Assembly (NCBI GenBank): GCA_963748015.1
Contig: CAVVHE010000008.1
Location: 222,070 to 286,069 of the forward strand
Length of the DNA: 64,000 bases
From: Terriglobia bacterium
GTDB lineage: Bacteria > Acidobacteriota > Polarisedimenticolia > Polarisedimenticolales > JAIQFR01
Direction: 5' to 3'
This document shows, one piece after another, positions 6,616 to 47,741 of the stretch. How positions within the stretch are numbered: the stretch's first letter is position 1; each line of letters starts with the position of its first letter. The notes below the pieces were generated by a model. That model saw nothing but the letters and a program-made list of their open reading frames with translations. It did no database searches and was not told the DNA's origin. Made by a program: the position numbers and the translations under genes.

Positions 6616-9600
6616 CTAGAGTCCCGAGGCGACGGTGTCGACGCCGTTGCGGAAGATCGCGATGCCGGCGCCCTCCTCGGGGAAGGTGCGGGACGGGTCG
6701 GGCGTGTGGGCGTTGCGGGCGCGCCTGAACCAGAGCGGGTGCTGGAAGGCGTAGAGGTAGGCGTCGGGGTGCGGCATCATCCCGAAGAGGCGGCCGGAGG
6801 GGTCGCAGACCCCCGCGACGGCGCCGGGCGAGCCGTTCGGGTTCCACGGCCAGGCGAGCGTGGGGCTCCCGTCGGGACCGACGTAGCGCGCGGCGATCTG
6901 CCGGCCGGACTCGAGCCTCGACATCACCTCGCCGTCCGCGACGAGGAACTTCCCCTCGCCGTGGCGCGCGGGCACGTCGAGCGTCTCGACGCCGCGCGTC
7001 CAGACGCAAGGCGATTCCGGGTCGAATGCGAGGCGGACCCACGCGTTCCGGTAGCCCAGGCGGTCGTTCGGGGCCAGCGTCGCGCGCGGCGTGCGGTAGT
7101 CGCCGTCGAAGCCGGGAAGCATGCCGAGGCGCACCATCGTCTGGAACCCGTTGCAGATGCCGAGCGCCAGGCCGCCGCCGTCGATGAACTCCAGCAGACG
7201 GTCGTAGAGGCGCCACCGGATCTTGTTGGCGAACACCGAGCCGGCGCCGAGGTGGTCGCCGAAGGCGAACCCGCCGACGAACACGAGGATCGGGTACTCG
7301 GAGAGCGCCCGCGGGGCGCGGCCATCCAGAACGTCGAGGAGGTGGACCCGCTCGGGGACGGCCCCGGCGGTGCGGAACGCCGCGTCGGTCTCCTCCTCGC
7401 AGTTGAGCCCCAGCCCCGTCAGGATCAGGACACGCACCTCGGCGCGCCTGCGCTCCTTCTCGTCCTCGGGCAGGGACCGGAAGCGCGCGACGCGAAGGCC
7501 GGCCGGCTCCTCCCGCGCCGGGGAGGGGCCGCGGCCGGGCGACTCGATCGCCGGCCCCGGCTCGGGCTGCTCCTCTGCGAGGGTCGCCTTGAACGCGGTC
7601 TTGAGCTCGAACACGTCCGCGTCGAGCACGGTCTTCCCGCCGAGGCGGGCGACGAGGCGGGGCGCCCCGGTCACCGTCCCGATCCGCCGGCACGCGAGCC
7701 CCTCGAACCGGCGCGCGAACGCCGCGGCGTGCTCCTCCGGAACGGTCGCCACGAAGCGCCCTCCAGATTCGGCGAACAGCGCCACGTCGGCGGGCAGCGC
7801 GGCGAGGTCGGGGCAGCGGTCGAGGTCGAGGTCCATCCCGAGCTCGCCCGCCATCGCCGCGCGGGCGAGTGCCAGGGCCAGGCCGCCCCGCGCCGGCACC
7901 GACGCCGAGCGGACCAGCCGCTCGCGCACGGCGCTGTCGAAGGCGCGGTAGAGGGGCAGGGTCTCCGCCGGGTCCACGCGGGGCGCCTTGTTCCCGACGT
8001 AGGGGCACGGGGCGCCGGGCGGCTGCGCGAGGCCGTCCAGCTCTCCCCGATGGCGGAAGTACTCGGAGGCGCCCGTCTCGTCGCGCGTGGTCCCGATCAG
8101 GAAGACGGCGTCTCCCGGCGCCTTGAGGTCGAGCGTCACGGCGTCCCGCACGTCGTCGATCCGCCCGATCGCCGAGACCAGCAGCGTGGGCGGCACGCTG
8201 ATCTTCACGCCGCCCATCGTCGAGTCGTTCTTCATCGAGTCCTTGCCGGAGATCAGCGGCGTGCCGTACGCGACGCACAGGTCGTGGAGCCCGCGGCAGG
8301 CCCGCACGAGCTGCGCCATCTTGTACGCGCCGTCGGGGGTCGTCTCGCGACTCGACGGGGTCCGGCCAGCAGAAGTTGTCGAGCAGCGCGATCCGGTCGA
8401 GGCGCGCGCCGGCCGCGAGCTGCCGGCGCACCGCCTCGTCCACCGCGAGGGCGGCCATCGCGTACGCGTCGATGTCGGAGAGGAACGGATGGATCCCCTC
8501 CGACAGGACGTACCCCTTGACGGAGCCGTGCCGCGCGAGGAACACCGTTCCCTCGGCCGGAACGTCCGCGTTCACCCCGGTGAACGGCTTGACGACCGAG
8601 AGGCCCTTGACCTCGTGGTCGTAGTGCCGCGCCTTCCCCTCGATCGAGCAGAGGTTGAGCCGGCCGAGGAGGTCGCGCAGCAGCCCGCGTCGAGATCGGC
8701 CGGCGCGGGCCCCGGGGGCTCCGGGAAAGACGGCGGCGTCCAGCGGGCGGCGAGGTCGAGATCCGGATCCCCCTCGTGCAGGAACTCCATGTCGAGGAGC
8801 GCCACGATCTCAGCCCCGTAGGTCACGTGCGAGCCGGCCGCCCGAGGTGAACTCGCCGAGGACCGTGGCCTCGACCTCGCGGCGCCGCGCGAGCGCGAGG
8901 AACGCGCCGATCTTCTCCGGCGCGACCGCGAGGGTCATCCGCTCCTGCGCCTCCGAGAGGAGGATCTCCCACGGCGCGAGCCCGGCGTACTTGAGCGGGG
9001 CGAGGGAGAGGTCGAGCCGCGCGCCACCCGACCCGCGGGCCATCTCCCCGACGGAGGACGAGAGGCCGCCCGCGCCGTTATCGGTGATCGCCTCGTAGAG
9101 GCCGAGCTCCCGCGCCTCGAGGAGGAAGTCGAACATCCGCTTCTGCGTGATCGGGTCGCCGATCTGCACCGCCTGCACGGGCGACGACTCGTCGAGGGCG
9201 GCCGACGAGAAGGTCGCGCCGTGGATCCCGTCGGCGCCGATCCGGCCGCCGGTCATCACGATCAGGTCGCCCGGGCGGGCCGACTTGACGTGGCCCGGCC
9301 GCCCGGCGACGGTCACCGGGAGCGCGCCGACCGTGCCGCAGAACACCAGCGGCTTCCCGAGATAGCGCGCGTCGAAGACCTCGAAGCCGCGGCCGTACGG
9401 GATCCCGCTCTGGTTCCCGCCGTCGATCACGCCGCGGTGCACGCCGTCGCGGATCCGGCGCGGGTGGAGGAGGCCCTTCGGGACCGGGCCGTCGTGGAAC
9501 GGCGACGCGAAGCAGTAGCCCCAGACGTTCGCGAGGAGATCCGCGCCCAGTCCGGTGCCGAACGGGTCGCGGTTGACCCCGACGATCCCGGTGATCGCGC

Positions 9601-10591
9601 CGCCGTACGGGTCGAGCGCGGAGGGCGAGTTGTGGGTCTCGACCTTGTAGACGAGGCTCAGGTGGTGGTCGAAGGCGACGACGCCGGCGTTGTCGTGGAA
9701 GACCGAGACGAGCCAGGAGACGCCGTCACGCTCGCGGACCGCGCGGTCGACCTTCTCGGTGGCCCCGCGGATGAACGTCTTGAAGATCGAGCGGATCGTT
9801 TCCGGATCGCGACCCGGCTCGTGGTACGTCACGGTCGCGTTGAAGATCTTGTGCTTGCAGTGCTCGCTCCAGGTCTGGGCGATGCACTCGAGCTCGGCGT
9901 CGGTGGGAGCGTCGCCGAGGCCGGCCTCGCGGCGGGCGGGATCGGCGGCGGCGGCGCGGAAGTGGTCGCGGACCGCCCGCATCTCGGCCACGGAGAGCGA
10001 CAGCAGCCGCTCGCGGCTGATCCGCGCGAGCTCCTCGTCGCTCCCCGAGAGCGGGACCGTCGCGACGCGAGGCGTCTCGTGGCCGGCCACGTGCGGCACG
10101 GAGAGGTCGGGAGGGGAGGCGGCCCACGCCTCGCGGGTCTCCACCTGGACCGTCTGGATCACCGAGTTGGCGAGAAGGTCCCACGCGATCCGCTCGGCCT
10201 GCGCGCGGTCCACGCCGTCGAGAAGGTAGAGGGTCGACGTGTAGACGGCGGAGCCCTCTCCGAGCGCGCGCTGTAGCGTGTCCTCGACCGCGACGCGCGC
10301 GCTCTTCCCCACCGGATCGGTCACCCCCGGTTTGTACGCGACGGTGACCGCGACGTCGAACGGGCCGTCCTCGACCCGCCCGATGGCCCCCGTCTCGCGC
10401 ACCGGGTCCGCAAACTCCGTCAGGACCCGCCGGGCCTCTCCGGCGGTAAGCTCCGCCTCGATCCGGTAGACGTCCCGCGTGCGCACCCGCCGCACGGGAA
10501 TCCCCAGGAACCCGCGCACCGTGCGGGACACCTCTTCCCCCCGCGGGTCCCGCTGTCCGGGCCGCGTCGCGATCTCGATCCTCGTAACCAA
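6616..10591 (-). pseudogene. purL: Phosphoribosylformylglycinamidine synthase, large single-chain form (PurS-like N-domain + FGAM synthetase + glutaminase); interrupted by 3 frameshifts as assembled
   Basis: Fragments 8810..10591, 8572..8826, 6506..8575 (N-terminal part only) and 6616..8319 read as one continuous PurL when joined. The joins are at about 8830, about 8693 and the G5 run 8335-8339. The start is a TTG at 10591 with GGAGG upstream. Confidence 0.85.
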
Positions 10592-10740
10592 GAAGACCTC
10601 CGGGGTCGGACATTACTGGCGTAACAGCCGGGGTCCTAAGCTAGCAGATTTCAATGGTTTTTCGGAAATCGGCGGGGGCCGGATTCGACGGGAGAACCGC
10701 CCTGCCGCGATGGCGGCGGTCGGGGGGCGCGGGCACCCGT

Positions 10741-11742: not shown

Positions 11743-11854
11743 ATGGATTGTCCCGTTTTTCCGGGATGAGCCCCTCCGGCGCGGTGGGGCGCCCCGTCGC
11801 GCCAGGGTGGTATTCTCCGAGTCCGGCCAACGGCAGGCCGGCCCAGGAGCCTCC

Positions 11855-14539
11855 ATGCGATCCTCGCGCAAGACGGGAATCCTCCTCGCGCTCTTCCTTG
11901 CGGCGGCCTCCCTCGCGGCGAAGCCCCCGGCACGGACGGAAAGAAAGATGAACGAGCCAGAAATCCCTTCGAAGGCCGTGGCACCCGCCGTGACGAGATG
12001 GCTCGTCCTCGGCCCGGTGCTCGATTCCCTGCCTGTCTTCCACGAGGAAAAACCGGGTTCGTACGGCATCGAGGAGCTGCTCAAGTCGGACCGTTTCACG
12101 GCAAGGCCGTGGCGCCCGGCGGAAGGAATCGAGGAGTCGTGGTTCGGCGGGGTGAGTCTTCGCTGGTCGGCTCGGGATGCCGGTCCGGACGGCCTCGTGA
12201 GCCTCGGCGTGCCCGCGGGCACCGGCGAGGGAAGGCCCGCGACCGCGTGGCTCGCGACGTACGTCGCGGCGGGACGGTACGCGTCGCTCGACCTCGTGGT
12301 GAACGGGACGCACGCGCGCCGGGCCTGGCTCGACGGAGAGCAGGTCGCCGTCGGCGGGACGGACAAGGACGCGGCGTCGCCCGCGGAGGTCAAGGGGAAG
12401 CTGGAGCTGACCGCAGGCAAGCACCTCCTCGTCATCGAGACGGCGTTCGACCCGGCGAAGGCGGACGCCTGGACCGCCGGGGCGTCCCTCAAGGCGCGCA
12501 AGGAAAGCGGCGAGGCGAGCGCCGCGTTCACGGCGACGCTCGACCCCGTATGGGACCTCGATATTCGCGACATCCTCGACCCCCCGCAGATCGTGTCGCT
12601 CGCGGTGTCGCCCGAAGGCACCGAGGTCGCGGTGTCCCTTTCCCGCATCGTCCCCGCGACCGACGATGCCGAGCGGTGGGTGGAGTTCCGTTCCACGGCC
12701 GACGGCGCGCTGCTCGGCACGTGGCGCGGCGGTCCGGCCGCGAGGCAGGTCGCCTACGATCCGCAGGGACGCTGGCTGTCGTACGTCACCGAGGTCAAGG
12801 GCGCTTCCGGAGACGCGGATCGCTCCACCCTCTGGATCCTGGACCGCCGGACGCAGGAAGCCCGCCCCTTGCTCGAGCGGGTGGAGTCCTTCTCCGACTA
12901 CGAATGGTCCCCCGACGGGCGCGCGGTCGCCTACTCGACGACCGTGAAGCCCGAGGCCGACAAGCGCGGGCTCAAGCGCTTCGAAGGGCTCCTCGACCGG
13001 CAAAAGGACTACCGCACGAAAACCTACCTGCACCTCGCGACGGTCCCGCAGGGGACGCGCCGGCGGCTCACGGCAGGCTCGCTCTCCGCGACCGGCGCCT
13101 CGTTCTCGCCCGGCGGGGATCGACTCCTGTTCGTCCGCGAGGTCGAGGACTTCGGCGCGCGCCCCTACACGAGGAAGGAGCTGTGGGAGATCGAGCTCGG
13201 CACCTTCGCGGCCCGCAAGCTGCGCGACGGGCGGTGGTTCGAGTCCGCGCAATACGCGCCCGACGGGAAGCGGATCCTGATCCAGGCGGGCCCCTCCGAG
13301 TTCGGGTCCGCCGGGATCAACGTTCCCGAGGGAACGGTCCCCAACGAGGGGGACGGCCAGCTCTACGTCTGGGACCCCGCGACCAGCCAGGTCGAGGCGA
13401 TCACGCGGGACTTCGACCCGGCCGTGACCTCGGCCACGTGGAGCCGCGCGGACGGCAACATCTACGTGAAAGCCGAGGACCGCGACCGCGTGCGCGTCTT
13501 CCGGTACGACGCGGCGGCGAGGACCTTCGCGCCGGTCGGGACGGAATGCGAGGTCGTGAGCGAGGCGGCGTTCGCCGAGCGCGCCCCCGTGGCCGCGGTG
13601 AGCGGGACCTCCCCCTGGACGCCGTCGCGTCTCGCCGTCGCCGACCTCAAGAGCGGGGCGTCGAAGGTGCTGCTGGAGCCTGCGGCGGCCGCGCTGGCCG
13701 GGGTGCGGAAGGGAACGGTCGAATTGTGGAGCTTCGCCGCCGCGAGCGGGCGCACGATCGACGGGCGGGTCTACCTCCCGCCCGGCTTCGAGGCCGCGCG
13801 CGCCGCGAAGTACCCGGTGATCGTCTACTACTACGGCGGGACCTCTCCCGTGACCCGCGACTTCGGCGGTCGATACCCGAAGGAGTGGTGGGCGGCGAAC
13901 GGGTACGTGGTCTACGTCCTCCAGCCGTCGGGGGCCACCGGGTTCGGGCAGGCGTTCTCGGCCCCGCACGTCAACGACTGGGGGGAGATCACGGCGCAGG
14001 AGATCATCGAGGGGACGCGGAAGTTCCTCGAGGCGCACCCCTACGCGGACCCGAAGCGCGTCGGGTGCATCGGCGCCTCGTTCGGCGGGTTCATGACCGA
14101 GCTGATCGTCACCAAGACGGACCTGTTCGCCGCCGCGGTGTCGCACGCGGGAATCTCGTCCATCTCGTCGTACTGGGGGGAGGGGTACTGGGGGTATTCC
14201 TACAGCGCGCTCGCGACGGCCGGGTCGTTCCCCTGGAACCGCAAGGACATCTACGTCGAGCGCAGCCCGCTGTTCCGCGCCGACAAGGCCCGGACCCCGC
14301 TCCTCCTGACGCACGGCTCGGTCGACACGAACGTGCCGCCCGGAGAGAGCGCCTCGTTCTACGCGGCCCTCAAGCTCCTCGGGGTCCCGGTCGAGTACGT
14401 GCAGGTCGAGGGGATGGACCACCTGATCCTGGATCACGCCAAGCGCATCGTGTGGTCGCGGACGATCCTCGCGTGGTTCGACCGCTGGCTCAAAGGGCAG
14501 CCGGAGTGGTGGGACGCGCTCTACCCGAAGGAGAAGTAG
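11855..14539 (+). CDS. S9 family serine peptidase (prolyl oligopeptidase/dipeptidyl peptidase type) with N-terminal beta-propeller region
   Basis: A signal peptide is present and the nucleophile elbow is GASFGGFM. The C-terminal alpha/beta-hydrolase region has LLLTHGSVDTNVP and MDH. I chose the ATG at 11855, which has AGGAG upstream (the ORF-track start is 11807). Confidence 0.8.
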   Translation: MRSSRKTGILLALFLAAASLAAKPPARTERKMNEPEIPSKAVAPAVTRWLVLGPVLDSLPVFHEEKPGSYGIEELLKSDRFTARPWRPAEGIEESWFGGVSLRWSARDAGPDGLVSLGVPAGTGEGRPATAWLATYVAAGRYASLDLVVNGTHARRAWLDGEQVAVGGTDKDAASPAEVKGKLELTAGKHLLVIETAFDPAKADAWTAGASLKARKESGEASAAFTATLDPVWDLDIRDILDPPQIVSLAVSPEGTEVAVSLSRIVPATDDAERWVEFRSTADGALLGTWRGGPAARQVAYDPQGRWLSYVTEVKGASGDADRSTLWILDRRTQEARPLLERVESFSDYEWSPDGRAVAYSTTVKPEADKRGLKRFEGLLDRQKDYRTKTYLHLATVPQGTRRRLTAGSLSATGASFSPGGDRLLFVREVEDFGARPYTRKELWEIELGTFAARKLRDGRWFESAQYAPDGKRILIQAGPSEFGSAGINVPEGTVPNEGDGQLYVWDPATSQVEAITRDFDPAVTSATWSRADGNIYVKAEDRDRVRVFRYDAAARTFAPVGTECEVVSEAAFAERAPVAAVSGTSPWTPSRLAVADLKSGASKVLLEPAAAALAGVRKGTVELWSFAAASGRTIDGRVYLPPGFEAARAAKYPVIVYYYGGTSPVTRDFGGRYPKEWWAANGYVVYVLQPSGATGFGQAFSAPHVNDWGEITAQEIIEGTRKFLEAHPYADPKRVGCIGASFGGFMTELIVTKTDLFAAAVSHAGISSISSYWGEGYWGYSYSALATAGSFPWNRKDIYVERSPLFRADKARTPLLLTHGSVDTNVPPGESASFYAALKLLGVPVEYVQVEGMDHLILDHAKRIVWSRTILAWFDRWLKGQPEWWDALYPKEK

Positions 14540-14549
14540 CGGCTGCGCG

Positions 14550-15140
14550 CTAGCGAACGGTCAGCTTCCCGCCGGCCCACGTGACGGCGATCCCGTTGCC
14601 GGGGGGAAGGCCCGGGCCGACGACCTCGCCGTGCCCGTCCACGAAGGCGATCGGGCTGGCGACGATCGCCTTCGTCCCGATGAACGAGAGGACGATCAGG
14701 TCCCGCGCATCCGTCACGTCGACGCCCGCGACCGTGCCTCCCGCGTTCTGGATCCGGGAGATGCCCACCTTGATCTTGCCCGGCGTCGTGTTCGGGTCCA
14801 CCTGGACGGCAATATCGGTCCCGCCGTCGCGGAGGAACGACGACGCGCCGTCGAAGGTGTGGTACGCCACGGCGGTGTTGTCGTAGGAGATCCAGAACGC
14901 CGCCCCGAAGAAGTCCGGGACGCCCTTCACGGACACCTTCACCTGGGACAGCCTCCCCGACACCTCGCCGGGCTGCAGGGTCACCGACCCGTCGGCGGGC
15001 GACGGCTCGTCGGGGGTGAAAGTCGCAACGGCCGCCGGGACCGTGGTTTGCGCGGAGCCTCCGCACGAGAGGACGAGGAGGCAGCCGAGCGCGGCCGCGA
15101 CGGCGGGAGAAAGCATGGGACGCGGGGTTCGCCGTTGCAT
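14550..15140 (-). CDS. Lipoprotein with one cohesin-like domain
   Basis: The 196-aa product has lipobox LVLSC. It has a beta-sandwich pattern: VKVSVKGVPDFFGAAFWISYD...DLIVLSFIGTK...IAVTWAGGKLTV. A GGAGGAAGGA RBS is present, and the gene lies 20 nt downstream of the dockerin protein gene. Confidence 0.65.
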   Translation of the reverse strand: MQRRTPRPMLSPAVAAALGCLLVLSCGGSAQTTVPAAVATFTPDEPSPADGSVTLQPGEVSGRLSQVKVSVKGVPDFFGAAFWISYDNTAVAYHTFDGASSFLRDGGTDIAVQVDPNTTPGKIKVGISRIQNAGGTVAGVDVTDARDLIVLSFIGTKAIVASPIAFVDGHGEVVGPGLPPGNGIAVTWAGGKLTVR

Positions 15141-15160
15141 CGTCGTTCCTTCCTCCGCCG

Positions 15161-17797
15161 TCAGGGACATGCGAGGCCGAAGAACGCGGCCACGAAGGCC
15201 AGGTCGTCGCCGTCCACCGTGCCGTTCAGGTCCACGTCCGCCGGGGCGAAGTACCGGGCCGGCGTGAGCGCCCGGTCGGAGGCGAAGGCGGTGGTGACCC
15301 ACAGCAGGTCCTTGCCGTCCACCTGCCCGTCGCCGTCGAGGTCGGGGAGCGTCGGCTTCGCCGACGCCGTGCCGCCGAGGTGGCCGAGGTTCGAGCGGCC
15401 GCCGTTCGGCTGCGGCTCGGTCGAGTAGTCCGCCGCCGGGTCGGCGGTGTCGATCGCCGCCGAGCAGCGCCCGAGCGCGTAGTCGTCGACGAGCTTCGGG
15501 TCCCCCGAGATGACGGTGTCGTCCACCGTCAGCTCCCCTTCGAGCGTCCGCTCGAAGTCGACCCGGGTATTCCCGAAGACGTCCGTGTAGGCCACGTGGA
15601 TGCCGAGGTCCCGCTCGCCCCCCTGCTGCATCTTGCCGTCGTCCCGCGCCAGGGGGCCGCCGATGCCCATCCCGACGTTGTTCGCGAGGATCGAGTTCGA
15701 GACGTCGACGCGAGCGCTCCCGCCGGGCGCGCCGTCGGACTCGATCTCGATGGCCGCCGCGCCCTCGTCGGACCGGTTGGCCGCGATCGTGCAGAAGTCC
15801 ACCGCCGTCCCGGCCTGCCCCTCGCCACCGCGCAGGTAGAGGAACAGGCCGCCACCGGTGGCGTCGTCGGTGTCCGCTTTCGTCGCGACGTTCTCCGCCA
15901 CGAGGTTGCGAGAGAACCGGGCGGACGCTCCCGATGCTCCCTCGGACTCGATCGCGAGAACGGCGCCCGCGCCGAAAGAGGTGGCCGAGTTCTTCCAGAT
16001 CGTGCTCGTCTCGACCACCATCGACCCGCCCGCGCCGGGGCCTCCCGACGAGAGGGTGGCGCGCAGTCCTCCTCCCGCCACCGCCGTGTTGCCCGCGATC
16101 GTGTTTCCGCTCGCGGCGAGGCTTCCGGCCTCCGCGGACGACGGGCCGTGGAGGAGAGCGAGGTCGAGCCCTCCGCCCGAGCCGCCCGCCCGATTGCCCG
16201 AGACCAGGTTGAGGGTGGCGTCGACCCGGCGCTGCCCCGGCCCGTCGCCCGCGACGCGCAGGAGCATCCCGCCGCCGTCGGCCGCGGCCGTGTTCAGCTC
16301 CACGACGTTGCCGCTCGCGGTGATGCGCGCGCCGCCCGCGACCCCGAGGTCCACGACGGCGCCGCCGCCCCGTCCCGCCGCGTCGTTCGCGACGATGGCG
16401 TTCTTGTTCAGCACGACGTCCGCCTGTGCCGCATCGCCGCCGAGCGATGCCACCACGGCGACCGCGCCGCCGTCCTGGGCCGCGTTCACGCCGAGCGAGT
16501 TGTCCTCGACACTCACGCTGAAGCGTCCCTCGCCGGACGCGAGCGCCAGGAGCGCGCCGCCGCTCCCCGTCGCGGCGTTGCGGATCATCTCGTTGCCGCT
16601 CGCGACGAGACGCGTGCCGGAGTCCGGGAAGGTGACGGTGCGCAGGAACACGCCGCCGCCTCCGTGCCCCGGACCGGCCGCGTCCGCGACGTTGTCTCGA
16701 ATCGCGTTGTTCTCGACGCGAACCTCGGTCGCCAAGAGGCACGGCCCCCACTGCACGCAGACCGATCCGGCTCCGGCGTCGATGCAGTCCTGGCTGACCG
16801 CGCAGGTCACCGCCGGGTCGTCGCGGCACACCAGGCATCCCGGGTTGCCCGTGCAGGCGAGGGCCGTGTTCCCCCAGCAGGCCGCGGGCACCGCCGCCTG
16901 CGCCGGCTCGAGAAGGATGGCTCCCCCGTCGGACCCCGTCGCGCGGTTGCTCGCGATGCGGTTGCGGGAGATGGTTCCGGAGCCCGCGAGGCGCACTCCC
17001 GAGAACCCCCCGCCGTACACCGTGAATCCGGTGAGTGTCGAGCCTGTCCCGAGGTCGAACACCGGCGCCACCGTGAGCGGGTCGCAGCTCTCTCCTTCGG
17101 GACAATCGGCGCTCGACGAGCACCACGCTCCCGAGACGCTGCAGGTCCCCTCGATCCGGCTGCAGCTACCGAAGTCGCAGTCCAGGTTGGCGCAGGTGCC
17201 GTTGCCGAGGCACTCGACCGTCGGGTGCCTCTTGCACGTGCCCTTCGTCTGGCCGGTCGGGATTTCGCAGGTGTCGGGCGTGCAGGACGCGGTCCTGTCG
17301 TTCGTGCAGGCCCCGACGTCCACCGTCGCCGTGCAGGTCTCGCCGGTCGGGCACTCGGCATCCACCACGCAATACCGGGTCTTGGTCACGCTGCAGACCT
17401 TGTTGTTGCAGAAGCCCTTGCAGTAGTCCGCGCTGGGGCCGTAACAGGCGATGCTCTTCCGGTCCTCGCAGCTGTTGCCTCCGCAGGTCCCCGTGCCGTC
17501 GACGATCGTGACGAGGCTCGACGGAGGGTTCACCTCGCTCGCGGTCGCGACGAAGGAGAGGCGCCTGCCCGACGCGTTCACGCACTCGCGGTAGAGCCCC
17601 GGCCGCACGCGGACCGTGTCGCCGTCCGCCGCCACGCTCGCCGCGTGGCCGACGGTCGCGAAGGGGGCCGAGCTCGATCCGTTGCCGGCGACGTCGTCGC
17701 CGGTGGCGGACACGTACCAGGTCCGCGCCGCGGCGAGGGCCGGAAGCGAGGCGAGCACCAGCACCAGCGGCGGCAGCAACCGCCGGATCGATCTCAT
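15161..17797 (-). CDS. Secreted right-handed beta-helix (PMP-like GGA[ILV] repeats) protein with Cys-rich insert and C-terminal type-I dockerin
   Basis: The 878-aa product has a signal peptide and many GGAILL/GGALLAL/GGGLDL coils. The C-terminal duplicated Ca-binding segments are DLDGDGQVDGKDLLWV and DVDLNGTVDGDDLAFV. Confidence 0.75.
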   Translation of the reverse strand: MRSIRRLLPPLVLVLASLPALAAARTWYVSATGDDVAGNGSSSAPFATVGHAASVAADGDTVRVRPGLYRECVNASGRRLSFVATASEVNPPSSLVTIVDGTGTCGGNSCEDRKSIACYGPSADYCKGFCNNKVCSVTKTRYCVVDAECPTGETCTATVDVGACTNDRTASCTPDTCEIPTGQTKGTCKRHPTVECLGNGTCANLDCDFGSCSRIEGTCSVSGAWCSSSADCPEGESCDPLTVAPVFDLGTGSTLTGFTVYGGGFSGVRLAGSGTISRNRIASNRATGSDGGAILLEPAQAAVPAACWGNTALACTGNPGCLVCRDDPAVTCAVSQDCIDAGAGSVCVQWGPCLLATEVRVENNAIRDNVADAAGPGHGGGGVFLRTVTFPDSGTRLVASGNEMIRNAATGSGGALLALASGEGRFSVSVEDNSLGVNAAQDGGAVAVVASLGGDAAQADVVLNKNAIVANDAAGRGGGAVVDLGVAGGARITASGNVVELNTAAADGGGMLLRVAGDGPGQRRVDATLNLVSGNRAGGSGGGLDLALLHGPSSAEAGSLAASGNTIAGNTAVAGGGLRATLSSGGPGAGGSMVVETSTIWKNSATSFGAGAVLAIESEGASGASARFSRNLVAENVATKADTDDATGGGLFLYLRGGEGQAGTAVDFCTIAANRSDEGAAAIEIESDGAPGGSARVDVSNSILANNVGMGIGGPLARDDGKMQQGGERDLGIHVAYTDVFGNTRVDFERTLEGELTVDDTVISGDPKLVDDYALGRCSAAIDTADPAADYSTEPQPNGGRSNLGHLGGTASAKPTLPDLDGDGQVDGKDLLWVTTAFASDRALTPARYFAPADVDLNGTVDGDDLAFVAAFFGLACP

Positions 17798-18063
17798 GAA
17801 GACAACCCTCCTCCACGGCGAGACGACCCGAACACAGAAGCCGCCCGTGGCGGCGGCCGCTAACTGTATCCCAACTCGGGCATGGCATCGAACGCGAGGC
17901 GGGCGGGGCCGCCCGCGCGCGGGGGAACGACCCGGCCGGGACGGGCCGCCGGGCGAATCCGCTGGTATTTCCCCCGCGGTGCACTAGATTCTCCCGGGGG
18001 GACAGGCCTGCGCGGAGCGCGGGCGCCGGCGGGGTGCGTCGTCCGCCGGAAGGCGAGGGAGCC

Positions 18064-19947
18064 ATGAGGAAGTCCTTGGCGTTCGCGTTGGCATGGGCTG
18101 CGCTCGCGACGGTCCCCGCGGAGGGCGCCACCCTGTGGGTGGCGCGCTGCAGCGTCTCGGGCGACGGCTCTCGCCTGCGCCCGCTCTGCAGCATCCAGGA
18201 GGGCGTGGACGCCGCCGCTCCGGGGGACACCGTCCGGGTGCTGCCCGGCACCTACCGCGAGTGCGTGGTTGCGATCGGCCCGCCGGTCTCGCTCGTCGCG
18301 GACGATTTCGCGGTGGCGGGCCTGCGGACCACGACGATCGTGGACGGGACCGGCCTCTGCGACGACCCGTCGGCTCCGTCCTCGACGGTCCTGCTGCTCG
18401 GCGGCTCGGCGATCGAGGGGTTCACGGTGCGCGGGGGAGGCTACTCCGGAGTCGCCGGACTCGGGAGCGTGGCGATCACGAGCAACGTGATCGAGGGGAA
18501 CAGCTCGGCCGACGACGGCGGGGGCATCTACGTCAATGCCAGCGACTACTTCGGCGGGGCCGGAGACCTCGTCATCTCCGGCAACGTCGTCCAGGACAAC
18601 CAGGCCTACCGGAACGGCGGGGGGATCTTCGTCTACGGCTACGTGCAGCCCGGGGCCGGAAGGCGCGTCGTCGTGGACGGGAACGCCGTGCGTCGAAACG
18701 TGGCGGGGAACTTCGGTGGGGGCGTCGGCTCCCTTTCCGCGACCCCGTACCTCGGCGACGTCGAGGTGGCCATCACCCGGAACGTGATCGAGGACAACGC
18801 GGCGACGGGTTTCGCCGGGTACAGCTACGGCTACGGAGGGGGGATCTGGGCGAGCACCGGCGGAGAGGGAGCGGAGACGCTCCGCGTCGAGGACAACGAC
18901 GTCCGCCGGAACGAGTCGGGAGGAGGGGGCGGCGGGCTGTCCGCGTGGCTCCGCGCGACGTACGCCGGCTGGCACGCCGTGACCGTCGACGGGAACCGGG
19001 TCGCGCAGAACATGACGGTGGGATACGGGGGCGGCCTCGACCTCTACGTGAAGGCCGTCGACCTGGCGGTCTCCTACGCGCCGTTCTTCGAGGCGCGCGG
19101 GAACGACGTGACGTCGAACCAGGCGTACGCGGGGGCGGGAGGGATGCTGGACGTCTTCGTGGATGCCACCAACGCTTACGTCGCCTCGCGCGCGAGCCTC
19201 GTGTTCGAGGGAAATCGCGTGGCCGACAACGGGGGCGACGGGGACGCCGCGCCGCAATACGGCGCGGGGCTCGAGGTCGGCATCGAGGCGGGCGGGCCGG
19301 CGATCGCGACCGCGGACCTGCGCTTCAACACGATCGTCCGCAACCTCAGCGATCTCGCCGCGGGCGGGATCGACGTGGGGGTCAACACCGCGTTCGACGG
19401 CTCCGGGACCTACGAGGGACTGGCCTCGCTGACGCTCGAGGACTCGATCGTCGCGGACAACGAGGGGTTCGGCATCGGCAAGGCGCCGGCCATCTCCGGC
19501 AGCACCGACAACTGGACGTACGTCATCCGCTACAACGACGTGTTCGGGAACGGGCAGGACTACGAGCCGGTCGTCGGCATACCTCCTCCCGAGGACCGCA
19601 ACATCTCGGCGGACCCGCTGCTCCTCGCCCTCGACGTTCCGGACCTCTGCTCTCCCACGACCGATGCCGCCGACCCGGCCGAGGTCTTCGACCTCGAGCC
19701 GCAGCCGAACGGCGGCCGGGCGAACCAGGGGCATCTCGGCGGCACGGCCGCCGCCACGCAGAGCCTTCCCGACGTGAACGGCGACCTGCTCGTGGACGGG
19801 GTGGACGTGCTGAGGATCGCGACCGCGTTCGCCTCCACGGCCGCGCAGGCGCGCTTCTATGCCGCGGCCGACCTCGACCTGAACGGGATCGTGGACGGCG
19901 ACGACCTCGCCTACGTGGCGGCACGGTTCGGCAAGGACTGCCGGTGA
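18064..19947 (+). CDS. Secreted right-handed beta-helix (PMP-like) protein with C-terminal type-I dockerin
   Basis: A signal peptide ([21 protein letters not shown]) is present, with GGGIYV/GGGIFV/GGGIWA/GGGLDL coils. The C-terminal segments are [16 protein letters not shown] and [17 protein letters not shown] chose the ATG at 18064, which has GAGGGAG upstream. Confidence 0.75.
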
Positions 19948-19958
19948 AGGGGGCGGGG

Positions 19959-21014
19959 ATGAGCCGACTCTGCACGACTTCTCGATGTCTGATCGCCGCC
20001 GCGGCGCTCGCCTGCGCCGCGTCCCTCGCCTGCGGAGGAGGCGGCGGCGGGGGCACCACTCCCCCGGGGCTGGCCGCGACCTTCACCCCGGCCGTCGCAA
20101 CGCCGCCCGCCGGAGGGATCGGCATGCGGGCGGGCGCTCCAACGGGCGATCTCTTCGACGTGAAGGTCTCCGTGACGGGGGACGTGAGCGATTTCTACCG
20201 GGCGGCGTTTCACGTCGTCTACGACGGCTCCGTCGCGGAGTACGTGTCCGCCGCCGACGCGTCGTCGTTCCTCCGCGACGGCGGCGCGGCGGCGCAGTTC
20301 ACCTACCAGCAGGCGGCGGGGGACCTCGCGGTGACCGCGACGCGCCTCCCGTACCCGCCCGTTCCGAACGCGTCGTTCGCCGCGTCGTCCGGCACCCCGC
20401 CCACGGGGAGCGTGGTCCTCGCCGCGGGGACGGCCGCGGGCGACACCTTCGAGGTGAAGGTCGCGGTGACGGGGGTGAGCGACTTTTTCGGGGCCGCGTT
20501 CCACGTTCTGTACGACCCCGCGGTCGCGGAGTACGTCTCGGCGGACGACGGCGCCTCGTTCCTCCGGCAGGGAGGAGCCGGCACGAGCTTCCTCTACGGC
20601 GGGTCTCCCGGCGATCTCGCCGTCTCGGCGACGCGCCTGCAGGACGGGGGCGGCTCCGTCCGCGGCGTGAACGTCCCCGGCACGGCCGACCTCCTCGTGC
20701 TCACGTTCCGCGCGAAGGCGACCGCGGCCGCGAGCCCGTTCGCCTTCGGGGTCCCGCTCGAGGTGCGGGACTCGTCGCAGCCGCCGCCCGGGCACGCGAT
20801 CTCGGTGATCTGGGAAGGGGGGACGATGACGGCCACGGTGCCGGCCGGCGCCCTCGTGACCGGCACGCGCGACCTCGTCGTGCTCCGCTTCCGCGCTCGC
20901 CAGGCGACGGCGGGGAGCGCGCTCGCGTTCTCCGCCTCGCGGCAGGTGGAGAACGCGGGGCAGGGGCCGATCTCGCTGTCGGGATGGACGGGAGGGACGC
21001 TGACCGCGAGGTGA
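19959..21014 (+). CDS. Lipoprotein with two cohesin-like domains arranged N-half/N-half/C-half/C-half
   Basis: The lipobox is SLAC followed by a Gly run. Two VKV[SA]VTG..DF[YF]..AFHV.YD segments are followed by two DL.VL.FRA...GGT.TA segments. The gene starts 11 nt after the stop of the dockerin gene. Confidence 0.65.
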
Positions 21015-21055: not shown

Positions 21056-22854
<1,799 letters not shown>

Positions 22855-23174
22855 GTTATCCCGTTACCCGTTGGAGCGATTGAGGATAGCACCGCCGGCA
22901 CCGTCTGTCTCGGGGCCTCGGGGGCGGCGGTGTCCGTTCCGCGTCCGTTCTGCCGAGTTCCGCCTCGAGGGTGTCCGCCGCGGGCCGAGGTGGGAGGGCG
23001 ACAGGCGCATGCAGCGGCTCGCCCGCCCAGCTCGAAAAGGGGGCGCCAAAGGCGTCTCGGCGGATGCCCTTGTTTTCCGGCCTGGTCGGGCGTACAAGGT
23101 CCACGAGCGAACTCGTTCGGTTCGCGCGGCCGGGACGAACCCTCCCGCGTGCACGCTGGTTCGATAGGCGACTC

Positions 23175-25400
23175 ATGAGAACGAACCGAGTTCTGCCACT
23201 TCCGACTGCGGTGTGCGTGCTGCTCGCTCTCTCTTCGGCTGCCGCCCTCGCTCAGGGCCGGGCGCCCACGCCAGCGAGCGATCCTGGAATCGCGGAAGGC
23301 GCTACCGACGCTCCCGTGGACTGGTACCTCCGAACTCCCGCCACGAGCCCGCCTGCCCGCGACCTGGCCGGGATGGCGTACGACAGCGCCCGGGGGCACG
23401 CCGTCCTCTTCGGGGGGTACAACGGCAGAGGAGGCGAGCTCTATTTCTCCGACACCTGGGTGTGGGACGGGGTGACGTGGATCCAAAAGGCGCCCCCGAC
23501 GAGCCCGTCGCCTCGCGCTCCCAGCGCGACGGCGTACGACAGCGCGCGGGACCGCGTGGTCCTCTTCGGGGGCTGGAACGGGACAGCGAATCCTCCCGTT
23601 TACGCCGACACATGGGAATGGGACGGGAAGACATGGGCCCAACGGACTCCTGCCACAAGGCCCAGCGCACGCGTGGCCGGGGGGTCGGCATACGACAGCG
23701 CGCGGGGACGCGTCGTGCTCTTCGGGGGGTACAACGGTACGAGCGGATACCTCGCAGACACATGGGAATGGGACGGGACCACGTGGGTGAGCAGGACGAG
23801 CACGACGAATCCCCCCGGGCGCGAGCTGGCCGGGATGGCGTACGACAGCGCGCGGGGACGCGTCGTGCTCTTCGGGGGGTTCCGCTGGCCCCCGGGCGAA
23901 GCTTACGACGACACATGGGAGTGGGACGGGAACGTGTGGATTCAGAGGACGCCGGCCACGAGCCCGTCGGCCCGCTACGGCGCCGCGATGGCGTACGACA
24001 GCCGGCGGGGGCGCGTCGTCCTGTTCGGGGGTATGGCGATCGGATTGCCGGACTGTCTCGTCGACACGTGGGAATGGGACGGGAACACGTGGGTCCAAAG
24101 GACGCCCGCCACGAGCCCGGGTCCCCGCGACGCTGCCGCGTCCGCTTACGACAGCGCGCGGGGGCGCGTCGTCCTGTTCGGGGGACAAAACCAGAACTAC
24201 TTTTTCGCGGATACGTGGGAGTACAAGCTGGCCGAGATCTGCAATGGCATCGACGACGACGGCGACGGCATCGTCCCCCCGGGCGAGTTCGACCACGATG
24301 GCGACCTCTACGTCGCCTGCTCGTCCTGGGTCGGCTCCGATCCGAACGTTGTCGGTGGCGGCGACTGCGACGACAACGACCCGACGGTCTACCCCGGTGC
24401 CCCGGATCCGCCGTGCGACGGTTGGAACCCGAACTGCCTCGACCCGGCTTGGCCGGCCGTCCCCCCGGACGAGATCGACCACGATGGTGACCACTACGTC
24501 GCCTGCTCGCCCTGGATCGGCTCCGATCCGGACGTCCTCGGCGGCGGCGACTGCGACGACAACGACCTATCGGTCTACCCGGGTGCCCCGGAGCAGCGGT
24601 GCGACGGAAAGATCCAGAACTGCCTGGACCCGGCCTGGCCAACCGTCCCGCCGGAAGAGATCGATCACGACGGCGACCACTACGTCGCCTGCTCGCCGTG
24701 GGTAGGAGCGGTCCAATCGATTTGGGGCGGGGGGGACTGCGACGACACGCGGGCCGACGTCTACCCTGGATACCCGGAGGTCTGCGACGGTCTGGACAAC
24801 GACTGCAACGGACAGATCGACGACGCGGGCGCGGATTCGGATCAGGATGGTGTCCACAACCTGTGCGACAACTGTCGCTTCGTCTACAACCCGGGCCAAG
24901 CCGACACCGACGTCGACGGCGTCGGCGATGCCTGCGACAACTGCCCCGGCGAGTTCAACCCCGACCAAGCGGACTACGACGGCGACGGTGTCGGGGGGGC
25001 GTGCGACAACTGCCCGGCGGACTACAACCCATCCCAAAGCGACGTGAACGGCGACCATGTCGGGGACGTGTGCGACCCGAACGACGGCTTGATCTACGTT
25101 TTCGCCGGGTACCTCTCGAGCATCGAGTGGTACCCGGAGACCGGTCCGACGACCTGGAACGTGTACGAAGGCGAGCTGGACGTCCTCCGTTCCACCGGCG
25201 TCTACACCCAGGAGCCCGGGTCCAACGACCTCGCCGCCAGATTCTGCGGGGTGACGGACACGTGGATTGCGGACGACGCATCGCCGCCGCTTGGCAAGGT
25301 CAAGTTCACGCTGGTGACCGGGGTGCAGAACGGGGTCGAGTGGAGCCTGGGGACGGGATCGCAGGGGGTCACGAGGCCGAACACGAATCCGTGCCCGTGA
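23175..25400 (+). CDS. Secreted mosaic protein: 6 Kelch-type blades + 3 MopE-like Cys/Asp metal-binding repeats + thrombospondin type-3 Ca-binding repeats + C-terminal domain
   Basis: A signal peptide is present at the ATG at 23175. There are six [13 protein letters not shown]...DTWEWDG units and three 62-aa DHDGD.YVAC...GGGDCDD...YPGAP..CDG units. These are followed by DSDQDG..CDNC...[22 protein letters not shown]3 repeats. Confidence 0.7.
24288..24800 (+). repeat. Intragenic tandem repeat, 186-nt period (units start at 24288, 24474, 24660; third unit diverges)
   Basis: The unit starts were located directly (ttc/atc gaccacgatgg.gac...). The repeat encodes the MopE-like 62-aa units. Confidence 0.8.
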
Positions 25401-45998: not shown

Positions 45999-46464
45999 AT
46001 GCTGGGTCCCGAGTTCGAGGCGAAGGTGAACGCGGTGGTCGCGCGCTACCCGGAGCCGCAGGCCGCCCTTCTTCCCGATCCTCTGGCTCGTCCAGAGGAC
46101 GAAGGGATGGGTGGACCTCGACTCCGAGGCGTGGATCGCGAGCCGCCTCGGCGTGAGCCCGGCGCACGTGCACGGGGTCGTGACCTTCTACACGATGTAC
46201 AAGCGCCGCCCCTGGGGGAAGTACCACATCCAGGTCTGCACCACGCTCTCGTGCATGCTCCGCGGCTCCGACGACCTGATGGCGCACCTCGAGAAGCGGC
46301 TCGGGATCAAGCCCGGGCAGACCAGCCCCGACGGGCGCTTCTCCCTGATCAAGGTCGAGTGCCTCGGATCCTGCGGCACGGCGCCGATGCTCCAGCTCAA
46401 CGACGACTACCACGAGAACCTGACGATCGAGAGCCTCGACCGGTTGCTCGACGGCCTCCCCTGA
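45999..46464 (+). CDS. nuoE: NADH-quinone oxidoreductase subunit E (one frameshift at 46077 as assembled)
   Basis: The N-terminus comes from ORF 45999. The remainder comes from ORF 46111..46464, with 2Fe-2S motifs ([21 protein letters not shown]). Confidence 0.85.
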
Positions 46465-46474
46465 CGGAGATCGG

Positions 46475-47741
46475 ATGGAACGGATCCTGACCCGCAACGT
46501 GGACAAGGAGGCCTCCCACACGCTCGCCGTGTACGAGGCGGGGGGGGGCTACCGGGCGTTCCGCAGCGTGCTGCGCTCGACGACCCCCGACGGGGTCACG
46601 GACCTGGTCAAGAAGTCCGGCCTTCGCGGGCGCGGCGGCGCCGGGTTCCCGACGGGGCTCAAGTGGTCCTTCATGCCGAAGGAATCGCCGAAGCCGAAGT
46701 ACCTGATCTGCAACGCCGACGAGTCGGAGCCCGGGACCTTCAAGGACCGCGTGCTGCTCGAGCGCGACCCGCACCTCGTCCTCGAGGGATGCCTGATCTC
46801 CGCGTTCGCGATGTCGGCGCGGGCGGCGTTCGTCTACATCCGCGGCGAGTACGTGTTCGCCTCGCGGATCCTCGAGCAGGCGATCGCCGAGGCGTACGCC
46901 GCCGGTCTCGCCGGGAAGAACATCCTCGGCAGCGGCTTCGACTGCGACCTCGTGCTCCACGTCGGCGCGGGCGCCTACATCTGCGGCGAGGAGACCTCGC
47001 TGATGAGCTCCCTCGAGGGGAACCGCGGCTACCCGAGGCTCAAGCCGCCGTTCCCCGCGCAGGCGGGTCTCTGGGGCTGTCCCACCACGATCAACAACGT
47101 CGAGACCCTGGCGAACGTGCCGTTCATCGTCGAGCGCGGAGCCGGACTGGTTCCTCTCGATCGGCAAGCCGCCGAAGAACACCGGCCCGAAGCTGTACGC
47201 GCTGAGCGGCCACGTGAAGCGCCCGGGCGTGTACGAGGGGCCGATGGGCCTCCCGCTCCGCGAGCTGATCTACGAGCTCGGCGGCGGGATGCTGCGCGAC
47301 GACCGGCCGCTCAAGGCCGTGATCCCCGGCGGGTCGTCGGTCCCGGTGCTCACCGCGGACGAGTGCGAGGTGGATCTCGACTTCGACTCGCTGGCGGCCA
47401 AGGGGAGCATGCTCGGCTCCGCCGGCGTGATCGTGATGGACAGCTCGACGTGCATGGTGAAGGCGATCGAGCGCCTCGCGCACTTCTACGCGCACGAGTC
47501 CTGCGGCCAGTGCACCCCCTGCCGCGAGGGGTGCGGCTGGATGGAGCGGATCCTCTCCCGGATCGAGCGCGGCGGCGGGCGGCAGGAGGACATGGACCTG
47601 CTCGCGGACATCGCCTCGAACATCCTGGGGAACACCATCTGCCCGCTCGGGGACGCGGCAGCCATGCCCGTGGCCTCGTTCGTGACCAAGTTCCGGCCCG
47701 AATTCCAGTACCACGTGGACCACAAGAAGTGCATGGTGTGA
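46475..47741 (+). CDS. nuoF: NADH-quinone oxidoreductase subunit F (one frameshift at 47144 as assembled)
   Basis: [16 protein letters not shown]...[14 protein letters not shown]...YICGEETSL comes from the first frame. [12 protein letters not shown] comes from ORF 47214..47741. Confidence 0.9.

Follow-up and report, generated by a model that had tools for sequence, protein, structure and literature searches.

What do cohesin and dockerin modules, the hallmark pair of the cellulosome, do when they are encoded side by side, twice, with no cellulosome gene found nearby? The question is raised by a stretch of 64,000 nucleotides (nt) from a Terriglobia bacterium (contig CAVVHE010000008.1; the whole stretch is called the window below), in which two gene pairs diverge from an intergenic spacer of 266 nt (17798-18063, defined by the coordinates and the sequence). 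According to the open reading frames (ORFs) and their translations, gene A (15161-17797, minus strand) encodes a beta-helix cargo protein of 878 amino acid residues (aa). Its stop codon lies 20 nt ahead of the start codon of gene A2 (14550-15140, minus strand), which encodes a single-cohesin lipoprotein of 196 aa. On the plus strand, gene B (18064-19947) encodes a second beta-helix cargo of 627 aa, and its stop codon lies 11 nt ahead of the start codon of gene B2 (19959-21014), whose product is a cohesin lipoprotein of 351 aa. A first-pass annotation of this DNA had given the coordinates, gaps and motifs of the four genes as well as the length of the spacer, and all of them were found to be correct. 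It had read the genes as self-contained cognate pairs, each tethering a beta-helix protein to a lipid-anchored socket, and the core of this interpretation is supported by the present analysis, which came across none of the three outcomes that the annotation had named as refuting it. The answer that I propose, with a probability of roughly 0.7, is that both pairs are two-gene cassettes of a diderm, Acidobacteriota-type bacterium, each of them dedicated to tethering by cohesin and dockerin, with a non-catalytic protein of the envelope or cell surface as its cargo.

The dockerin-cohesin gene pair is strictly conserved

Is this pairing common outside the window? By searches starting from either gene, I gathered 36 informative, non-duplicate pairs from Acidobacteriota metagenome-assembled genomes (MAGs) and metagenomes. 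In all of them (36/36), the dockerin gene is directly followed by the cohesin lipoprotein gene. Synteny across related genomes had been suggested as a check by the first-pass annotation, and the adjacency that it expected was found throughout. The distance from the stop codon of the dockerin gene to the lipobox Cys codon ranges from 47 to 127 nt, with a median of about 86 nt. Supported by this adjacency, the dockerin of A and A2 on the one hand, and the dockerin of B and B2 on the other, are putative binding partners.

The two search directions gave consistent pictures. Among the contigs that carry homologues of B2 and B, six (L001 and L004 to L008) have a cohesin gene that starts 11-18 nt behind a dockerin gene or slightly overlaps it. 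On the dockerin side, the C-terminus of the cargo was used as the query, with one genome per species. All loci scoring 85-102 bits with the family hidden Markov model (HMM) have a cohesin gene immediately downstream. The cohesin gene is also found downstream in a more distant Acidobacteriota locus (L020). The named sources of these pairs are Acidobacteriota, Terriglobia, and Acidobacteriia MAGs. At the weaker dockerin-only matches, which belong to Planctomycetota and other phyla, the downstream cohesin gene is absent. On the cohesin side, a metagenome scan with the motif DFFGAAF[HRT] yielded 29 loci, 26 of which have a dockerin ORF directly upstream, while the other three are cut by a contig end and are uninformative. 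The upstream partner is in every case a member of the same beta-helix family and scores 600-830 bits when complete. In addition, 1.84 billion cluster representatives (50% identity level) were searched with a cohesin profile. It matched 1638 of them at E <= 1e-3, and the number falls to 627 with a limit of 1e-10 and to 111 with a limit of 1e-30. The majority are lipoprotein-sized, of about 200 aa, and align end to end. The cassette is abundant in Acidobacteriota of soils and sediments.

A and B end in genuine dockerins

The first-pass annotation described the C-termini of A and B as canonical two-segment dockerins, and it was confirmed that each protein ends in a genuine one. The dockerin of A lies at 15164-15361 (minus strand) and that of B at 19753-19944 (plus strand), and they score 84.7 and 101.7 bits, respectively, with the family dockerin HMM. 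A has the Ca-loop segments DLDGDGQVDGKD and DVDLNGTVDGDD and GLACP as its last residues; B has two 12-residue Ca-loop segments and ends with GKDCR. Each of the four segments has D or N at the Ca-ligand positions 1, 3, 5, 9, and 12, and these columns vary little or not at all in the family alignment (alignment A2). When a profile of 30 family C-termini was compared with the PDB, the 12 best matches were all solved dockerins; the top one, 2y3n_B (E 6.4e-10), was aligned over positions 7-62 of the 64 positions of the profile. Superposition of the C-terminus of the AlphaFold2 (AF2) model of B on 2y3n_B gave a root-mean-square deviation (rmsd) of 1.4 Å over 57 residues (template modelling score, TMt, 0.78), and that on 4wi0_B gave 1.2 Å over 53 residues. 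The two dockerin helices of the model span residues 579-588 and 612-620.

How is the dockerin connected to the rest of the cargo? The conserved Cys residues of the cargo family (in B numbering) are C67 and C99 near the N-terminal cap, C529 in a CSPT motif, and the penultimate C626. A Cys is found within the last three residues of 35 of the 36 dockerins, and it is accompanied by another Cys some 100 residues closer to the N-terminus. Two beta-helix relatives, P0043 and P0044, lack the dockerin together with both Cys of the C529/C626 pair and have another C-terminal beta-rich domain in the place of the dockerin. Since the two Cys residues co-occur and are jointly missing in these relatives, it is likely that a disulfide between C529 and C626 ties the C-terminus of the dockerin to the helix cap. 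The model of B has a predicted TM score (pTM) of 0.89 over the entire chain, which is in line with a fixed orientation of the dockerin. The domain swap in P0043 and P0044 also suggests that the C-terminal attachment module is exchangeable.

The dockerins of A and B differ at several of the positions that contact the cohesin in solved type I complexes. Positions 11, 15, and 17 of segment 1 are K, W, and T in A versus V, R, and A in B, and positions 15, 19, and 22 of segment 2 are F, F, and L in A versus Y, R, and K in B. Because of these differences at contact positions, it is plausible that the A/A2 and B/B2 pairs have distinct specificities.

A2 and B2 are predicted cohesin lipoproteins

B2 matches Pfam Cohesin (PF00963) in two stretches, and its score of 69.7 bits (E 3.8e-19) exceeds the gathering score of 24.1. 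The AF2 model of B2, made from an alignment of 15 sequences, is all-beta, with a predicted local distance difference test score (pLDDT) of 87.7 and a pTM of 0.74. Its best Foldseek matches in the PDB are almost all cohesins, with TM scores of about 0.65-0.72 (TMt 0.72 for both 5nrm_A and 2jh2_C), and they include type I cohesins as well as the non-cellulosomal cohesins of Clostridium perfringens and Archaeoglobus fulgidus. On these grounds, B2 was assigned to the nine-stranded beta-sandwich (jelly-roll) fold of cohesins. A2 is called a cohesin on account of its homology to B2 (39% identity, 2e-29). It scores 238 bits with the family cohesin HMM, and its homologues carry precomputed PF00963 matches. 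The earlier description of the two adjacent genes as lipoprotein genes made of cohesin-like modules thus holds, in the case of A2 by way of B2.

The lipoboxes were judged by a PROSITE PS51257-type pattern and by the conservation of the Cys residue. In A2, the lipobox VLSC is followed by G, and the Cys is residue 26 (nt 15063-15065); in B2, the lipobox SLAC is also followed by G, and the Cys is residue 25 (nt 20031-20033). A Gly-rich stretch follows the Cys in both proteins. The Cys is invariant in the homologue alignments A1 and A6, and all 36 partner genes encode a lipobox Cys with a Gly/Ser/Asp-rich stretch. A2 and B2 are therefore predicted to be lipid-anchored lipoproteins, which fits the invariance of the lipobox Cys. 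The mature cohesin lipoproteins of the 36 loci mostly start with C-G-G-G and acidic or polar residues, as in CGGGDDT, CGGGNDS, and CGGGSDG. Speculatively, such CGGG-plus-acidic starts loosely recall the surface-export signals of Bacteroidota lipoproteins.

The same cohesin subfamily was also encountered in other architectures among the profile-search matches (P0159, P0173, P0175, P0195, P0206, P0127, P0129, and P0135). In such lipoproteins, the cohesin stands at the C-terminus after one to three repeats that look DUF11/CARDB- or Ig-like. In P0135 (892 aa), the cohesin stands at the N-terminus, together with a lipase-like region and thrombospondin type 3 (TSP3) repeats.

Evidence for a cohesin nested in a cohesin

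How are the modules of B2 arranged? They seem to be nested rather than in tandem, a point that the first-pass annotation had missed. I used two half-module HMMs, 'Nhalf' and 'Chalf', which represent the N- and C-terminal halves of single-module proteins, and found the halves in the order N-N-C-C. The N-terminal half of an outer cohesin (aa 39-130, 20073-20348, plus strand; 'Nhalf' 2.4e-29) is followed by a complete inner cohesin (aa 137-293, 20367-20837, plus strand; 'Nhalf' 1.5e-33, then 'Chalf' 1.2e-26), and the C-terminal half of the outer cohesin comes last (aa 297-351, 20847-21011, plus strand; 'Chalf' 3e-17). A2 aligns with the inner cohesin over 160 aa. When aa 36-134 of B2 were spliced to aa 294-351, the resulting sequence of 157 aa matched A2 over the full length (39% identity, 2e-23), and the junction showed a gap of a single residue only. 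Both halves are modelled at pLDDT > 90. The order of the halves and the model together strongly suggest that B2 is one cohesin inserted in a loop of another. The loop would be the one that connects the ATRLQ strand to the GVxV strand.

The order N-N-C-C is shared by B2 and nine diverged relatives (10 proteins). P0004 has the order N-N-N-C-C-C, and classical multi-cohesin proteins gave N-C tandems in the same search. P0004 itself is a triple-nested cohesin lipoprotein of 512 aa, and a single-cohesin gene encoding 201 aa lies directly after it (L004, 2801-4938); this locus has four cohesin modules in total after one dockerin-bearing cargo gene.

The cargo proteins form a beta-helix family

A and B resemble each other with a BLASTP E-value of 9e-46 and about 32% identity, and they are old paralogues rather than products of a recent duplication. 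Both carry a Sec signal peptide. There are 10 copies of the motif GG[AG][ILVMF] in A and 6 in B versus about 1.1 in shuffled sequences, which is an enrichment of about 6- to 9-fold, and the copies are spaced by about 33 aa. B passes the cut-offs of Pfam Beta_helix (PF13229; 29.0 bits versus 25.9) and DUF1565 (22.0 bits versus 20.3). The AF2 model of B (pLDDT 89.7) consists, apart from the disordered residues 1-19, of regular three-stranded coils that recur about every 33 residues. A, which scores 645 bits with the family HMM, is assigned to the right-handed beta-helix fold through its homology to B. These results bear out the earlier view of A and B as Sec-signal beta-helix proteins built on GG[AG][ILV]-type repeats. 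Two Cys-rich insertions are present in A and have no counterpart in B: aa 110-238 with 20 Cys residues, which gives a weak TIGR04201 match, and aa 307-353 with 8 Cys residues.

The label 'PMP-like', which the first-pass annotation had attached to these proteins, could not be retained. Neither A nor B has a Chlam_PMP (PF02415) or POMP repeat match at E <= 1, and PF02415 is carried by distant database relatives only (E > 1e-7). A chlamydial PMP or autotransporter identity was rejected, the C-terminus being a dockerin and not a barrel. The stretch in front of the dockerin had been described as a shared linker. It is indeed conserved in the family but is not a flexible linker: it has ten invariant columns (alignment A3) and is confidently modelled. 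The C-terminal motif peculiar to the cargo family is CSPT...EPxPNGGRxNxGHLGGT, after which the dockerin comes.

Are the cargo proteins enzymes? Across 34 homologues, the best-conserved columns of the helix core are almost all G or N, only T423 being invariant, and neither an invariant acid-base set nor a Ca-binding residue set was found there. Since the helix core conserves structural Gly and Asn only, the cargo is read as non-catalytic. The full-length fold matches of B are lyases and esterases of the PL6, PL9, and CE8 types, and they are generic (TM 0.25-0.43, rmsd 9-15 Å); no solved structure is a close relative of the B model (TM <= 0.43). The N-terminal cap has weak matches to Pel9A-like, DUF1565, and PelN models.

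A tethering mechanism and its alternatives

In the proposed mechanism, both genes of a pair would be co-transcribed, and their products would be made in matched amounts. The cargo would leave the cytoplasm via Sec, and its disulfides would form and its dockerin would load Ca2+ in the oxidising envelope, where one disulfide would bind the last residues of the dockerin back onto the helix cap. The cohesin would be lipidated at its invariant Cys and suspended on the Gly-rich tether. Docking of the dockerin into the cohesin would then keep the beta-helix at the membrane surface. The nested B2 would provide two rigidly oriented sockets (three in relatives) and could fix the geometry of two cargo molecules. 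The disulfides and Ca2+ would fit the periplasm or the cell surface alike. As for the cargo, a non-catalytic protein, be it an adhesin or a coat protein that binds the matrix, seems to me more likely than an enzyme. A wider picture is tentative and rather doubtful as a whole: a phylum-wide, cellulosome-independent system whose lipid-anchored socket gains valency via recursive insertion instead of tandem repetition, arranges disulfide-stapled beta-helices on rigid sockets with two or three places into a defined array of the envelope or surface, serving as an adhesive or protective coat, and keeps its pairs insulated by divergent dockerin contacts.

Several results weigh against this reading of the locus. 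A2 alone has no Pfam Cohesin match at E <= 1, and the profile built around it (A6) has nine PDB matches which, although all cohesins, are weak (best E 0.017). The Pfam Dockerin_1 (PF00404) scores are 21.5 bits for A (E 2.7e-4) and 21.9 bits for B, narrowly below the gathering score of 22.9. The search with Pfam models, which the first-pass annotation had recommended, thus succeeded for the cohesin of B2 but gave nothing for A2 and sub-threshold scores for both dockerins. In a comparison of distance matrices, the dockerin correlates with the cohesin (r = 0.74) no better than the helix cap does (r = 0.75), and the correlation therefore indicates shared ancestry only. No secretion system that would bring a Sec substrate to the surface is linked to the locus. 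The nested fold of B2 is deduced from sequence logic and model confidence. Finally, the cassettes of L001 and L006 stand beside polysaccharide genes, hints which would fit a role as an exopolysaccharide enzyme.

Because these two loci adjoin polysaccharide genes, an exopolysaccharide-active cargo stays a live alternative, albeit an unlikely one. The architecture would be the same, with a lyase, epimerase or esterase as the cargo, held by the lipoprotein at a periplasmic export route for exopolysaccharide or capsule, after the model of the beta-helix enzymes held in alginate and Pel-type systems. In L001 (8669-15171), the strand of the cassette continues with genes for GT2 glycosyltransferases, enzymes that modify sugar nucleotides, and a Wzx-like flippase, and in L006 (9019-12261) it continues with genes for a GGDEF-PilZ protein and for GT2 enzymes. 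The fold class of PL6 and PL9 lyases, pectin methylesterases, and AlgE/AlgG epimerases supplies the only full-length structural matches of the cargo, and the weak matches of the N-terminal cap point the same way. However, the structural matches are as weak as described above, the helix core of the 34 homologues conserves no catalytic or Ca-binding set, and the neighbours in the window, L007, L008, and L072 are housekeeping genes (lepA, the S9 peptidase gene, purL, and fabI). An enzyme might also be sought in a small cellulosome-like complex that degrades plant or other external polysaccharides, since cohesin plus dockerin is the cellulosome hallmark and the cargo fold is found in pectate lyases. 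This is the least credible of the explanations, and it can be given very little weight. HMM scans of the four proteins and about 24 neighbouring genes yielded no glycoside hydrolase (GH), polysaccharide lyase (PL), carbohydrate esterase (CE) or carbohydrate-binding module (CBM) family match, and neither a multi-module scaffoldin, let alone one with a CBM, nor a sortase was found near the locus, in agreement with what the first-pass annotation had noted of the neighbourhood. Each cohesin family is served by one dedicated cargo family, and the host genome is that of a diderm of aerobe type, with complex I and CcmF. The cellulosome identity was rejected on the lack of a carbohydrate-active enzyme (CAZyme) as cargo, of a CBM, and of a multi-enzyme scaffoldin.

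Could it be that the two modules do not bind each other? The dockerin would then serve only as a stabilising cap that binds Ca2+, and the lipoprotein might, for example, assist folding or export or act as an inhibitor. Many non-cellulosomal dockerin-like modules do stand without a nearby cohesin gene (loci L016-L042 of Planctomycetota, Phycisphaerae, and Verrucomicrobiota), and the co-variation test mentioned above did not single out the dockerin. On the other hand, the adjacency is strict in all 36 pairs, the partner protein has no folded part other than the cohesin, both modules match solved counterparts, and the dockerin seems to be an exchangeable attachment module, as judged from the two dockerin-less relatives. 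No characterised cohesin is known that does not bind a dockerin. I consider the absence of binding improbable, and tethering of a non-catalytic cargo by the adjacent lipoprotein is kept as the preferred explanation.

Chromosomal setting and assembly quality

The G+C content of the window is about 70%. Shine-Dalgarno-like GGAGG runs precede the start codons of A, A2, and B, and a simple scan of the spacer between A and B found no sigma-70-like site. The genes from A to B2 lie near lepA, an S9 peptidase gene, purL, fabI, and tsaD. The window shares with L008 and L072 the gene order tsaD, fabI, (lepA), cargo, cohesin, convergent S9 peptidase, and purL. Compared with L008, the window has pair B placed between A and lepA. 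L005, from a relative with 93% identity, has the same divergent layout as the window.

Two neighbouring genes deserve mention. The S9 (prolyl oligopeptidase family) peptidase gene (11807-14539, plus strand), which encodes a protein with a signal peptide and an N-terminal beta-propeller, adjoins the cohesin gene in convergent orientation, both in the window and in L007, L008, and L072. Its position beside the cohesin gene could reflect either shared ancestry or a functional link. Between lepA and fabI, a gene at 22971-25400 (plus strand) encodes a secreted protein of 809 aa with Kelch beta-propeller repeats, MopE-type metal-binding motifs, and Ca-binding TSP3 repeats. The syntenic locus L008 has no counterpart of this gene at that place.

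Some genes of the window are broken. The lepA gene (EF4; 21059-22854, minus strand), which adjoins B2, does not form a single open frame. Its alignment with the LepA of L008 is divided among three frames: -2 for aa 1-423, -3 for aa 325-550, and -1 for aa 543-598. The translation of the first stretch reads as if it left the frame and then returned. The broken lepA may be either a pseudogene or the result of assembly indel errors. The purL region (6616-10612, minus strand) is split into two ORFs, one with PurS-linker-AIRS-AIRS_C and the other with AIRS_C-GATase, and the nuoF ORF (46464-47741, plus strand) lacks its N-terminal domain. The state of lepA, purL, and nuoF fits scattered assembly frameshifts and may be due to indel errors of the assembly. 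In L006, a related long contig, lepA and a gene of the IF-2B family are similarly fragmented. Are the cassette genes affected? A, B, and B2 match full-length homologues of nearly equal length: P0040 (879 aa, a full-length match from an Acidobacteriia MAG) for A, P0014 (626 aa, 92% identity) for B, and P0001 (351 aa, 93% identity) for B2. The S9 peptidase gene is also intact. The four cassette genes A, A2, B, and B2 are intact despite their broken neighbours.

Relation to known systems and significance

Which known systems resemble the cassette? The fold matches of B2 include 3ul4 and 4dh2, complex structures of the single-cohesin anchor proteins OlpA (Cthe_3080) and OlpC (Cthe_0452) of Clostridium thermocellum. 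In that system, as is predicted here from the sequence, a single cohesin on an envelope anchor takes dockerin proteins directly, and no large scaffoldin is involved. However, OlpA and OlpC attach to a Gram-positive wall through SLH domains and serve many cellulosomal enzymes, whereas the proteins described here would have an N-terminal lipid in a diderm envelope. Moreover, one dedicated, non-CAZyme cargo family is encoded immediately upstream, and the multi-cohesin forms are nested instead of being tandem.

The fold matches also include 2xdh, the Archaeoglobus fulgidus cohesin, as well as 2jh2 and 2vo8, cohesins of Clostridium perfringens. Non-cellulosomal occurrences of cohesins and dockerins have been catalogued and are largely uncharacterised; a survey of such modules was reportedly made by Peer et al. 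in 2009 (FEMS Microbiol Lett 291:1, cited in PMC10066038 and PMC13487519). The cassette resembles them in that the parent proteins have no relation to cellulose degradation. The parent proteins of non-cellulosomal modules are described as mostly non-catalytic (PMC13487519). In syntrophic sulfate-reducing bacteria and in the anaerobic methanotrophic archaea called ANME, adjacent cohesin and dockerin domains are expressed and have been proposed to act in adhesion or partner recognition (PMC10553843, PMC9012536). Those cases are similar in the adjacency of the two domains and in the involvement of diderm bacteria (and archaea). They differ, as far as a comparison by description goes, in being domain annotations only, in other phyla and in other parent proteins, and the reports give no lipoprotein anchor, pairing statistics or nested topology.

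As for the cargo, B passes the Beta_helix and DUF1565 models and has three-stranded coils of about 33 residues, and it is similar in this respect to the DUF1565, Pel9A, and PbH1 beta-helix proteins. It differs from them in having no conserved catalytic signature and in carrying a family-specific C-terminal motif together with a dockerin. No description of a lipoprotein-anchored cohesin, an obligate beta-helix-dockerin operon, a stapled dockerin or a nested cohesin was found in the literature searched, which did not include the survey of Peer et al. Thus, the lipid anchor, the dedicated two-gene cassette for one cargo family, the stapled dockerin, and the nested cohesins look new.

What does the cassette mean for the biology of these bacteria? 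For the role of non-cellulosomal cohesins and dockerins, it is a minimal and self-contained test case, with one cargo family and one anchor family that are always adjacent. If the binding is true, the pairs would be natural and possibly mutually orthogonal cohesin-dockerin pairs for the engineering of protein assemblies, and the nesting of cohesins would stand as a rare example from nature of a domain inserted in its own copy to build a rigid multivalent receptor. For the bacterium itself, the binding would mean a lipoprotein-based display or retention of proteins in the diderm envelope.

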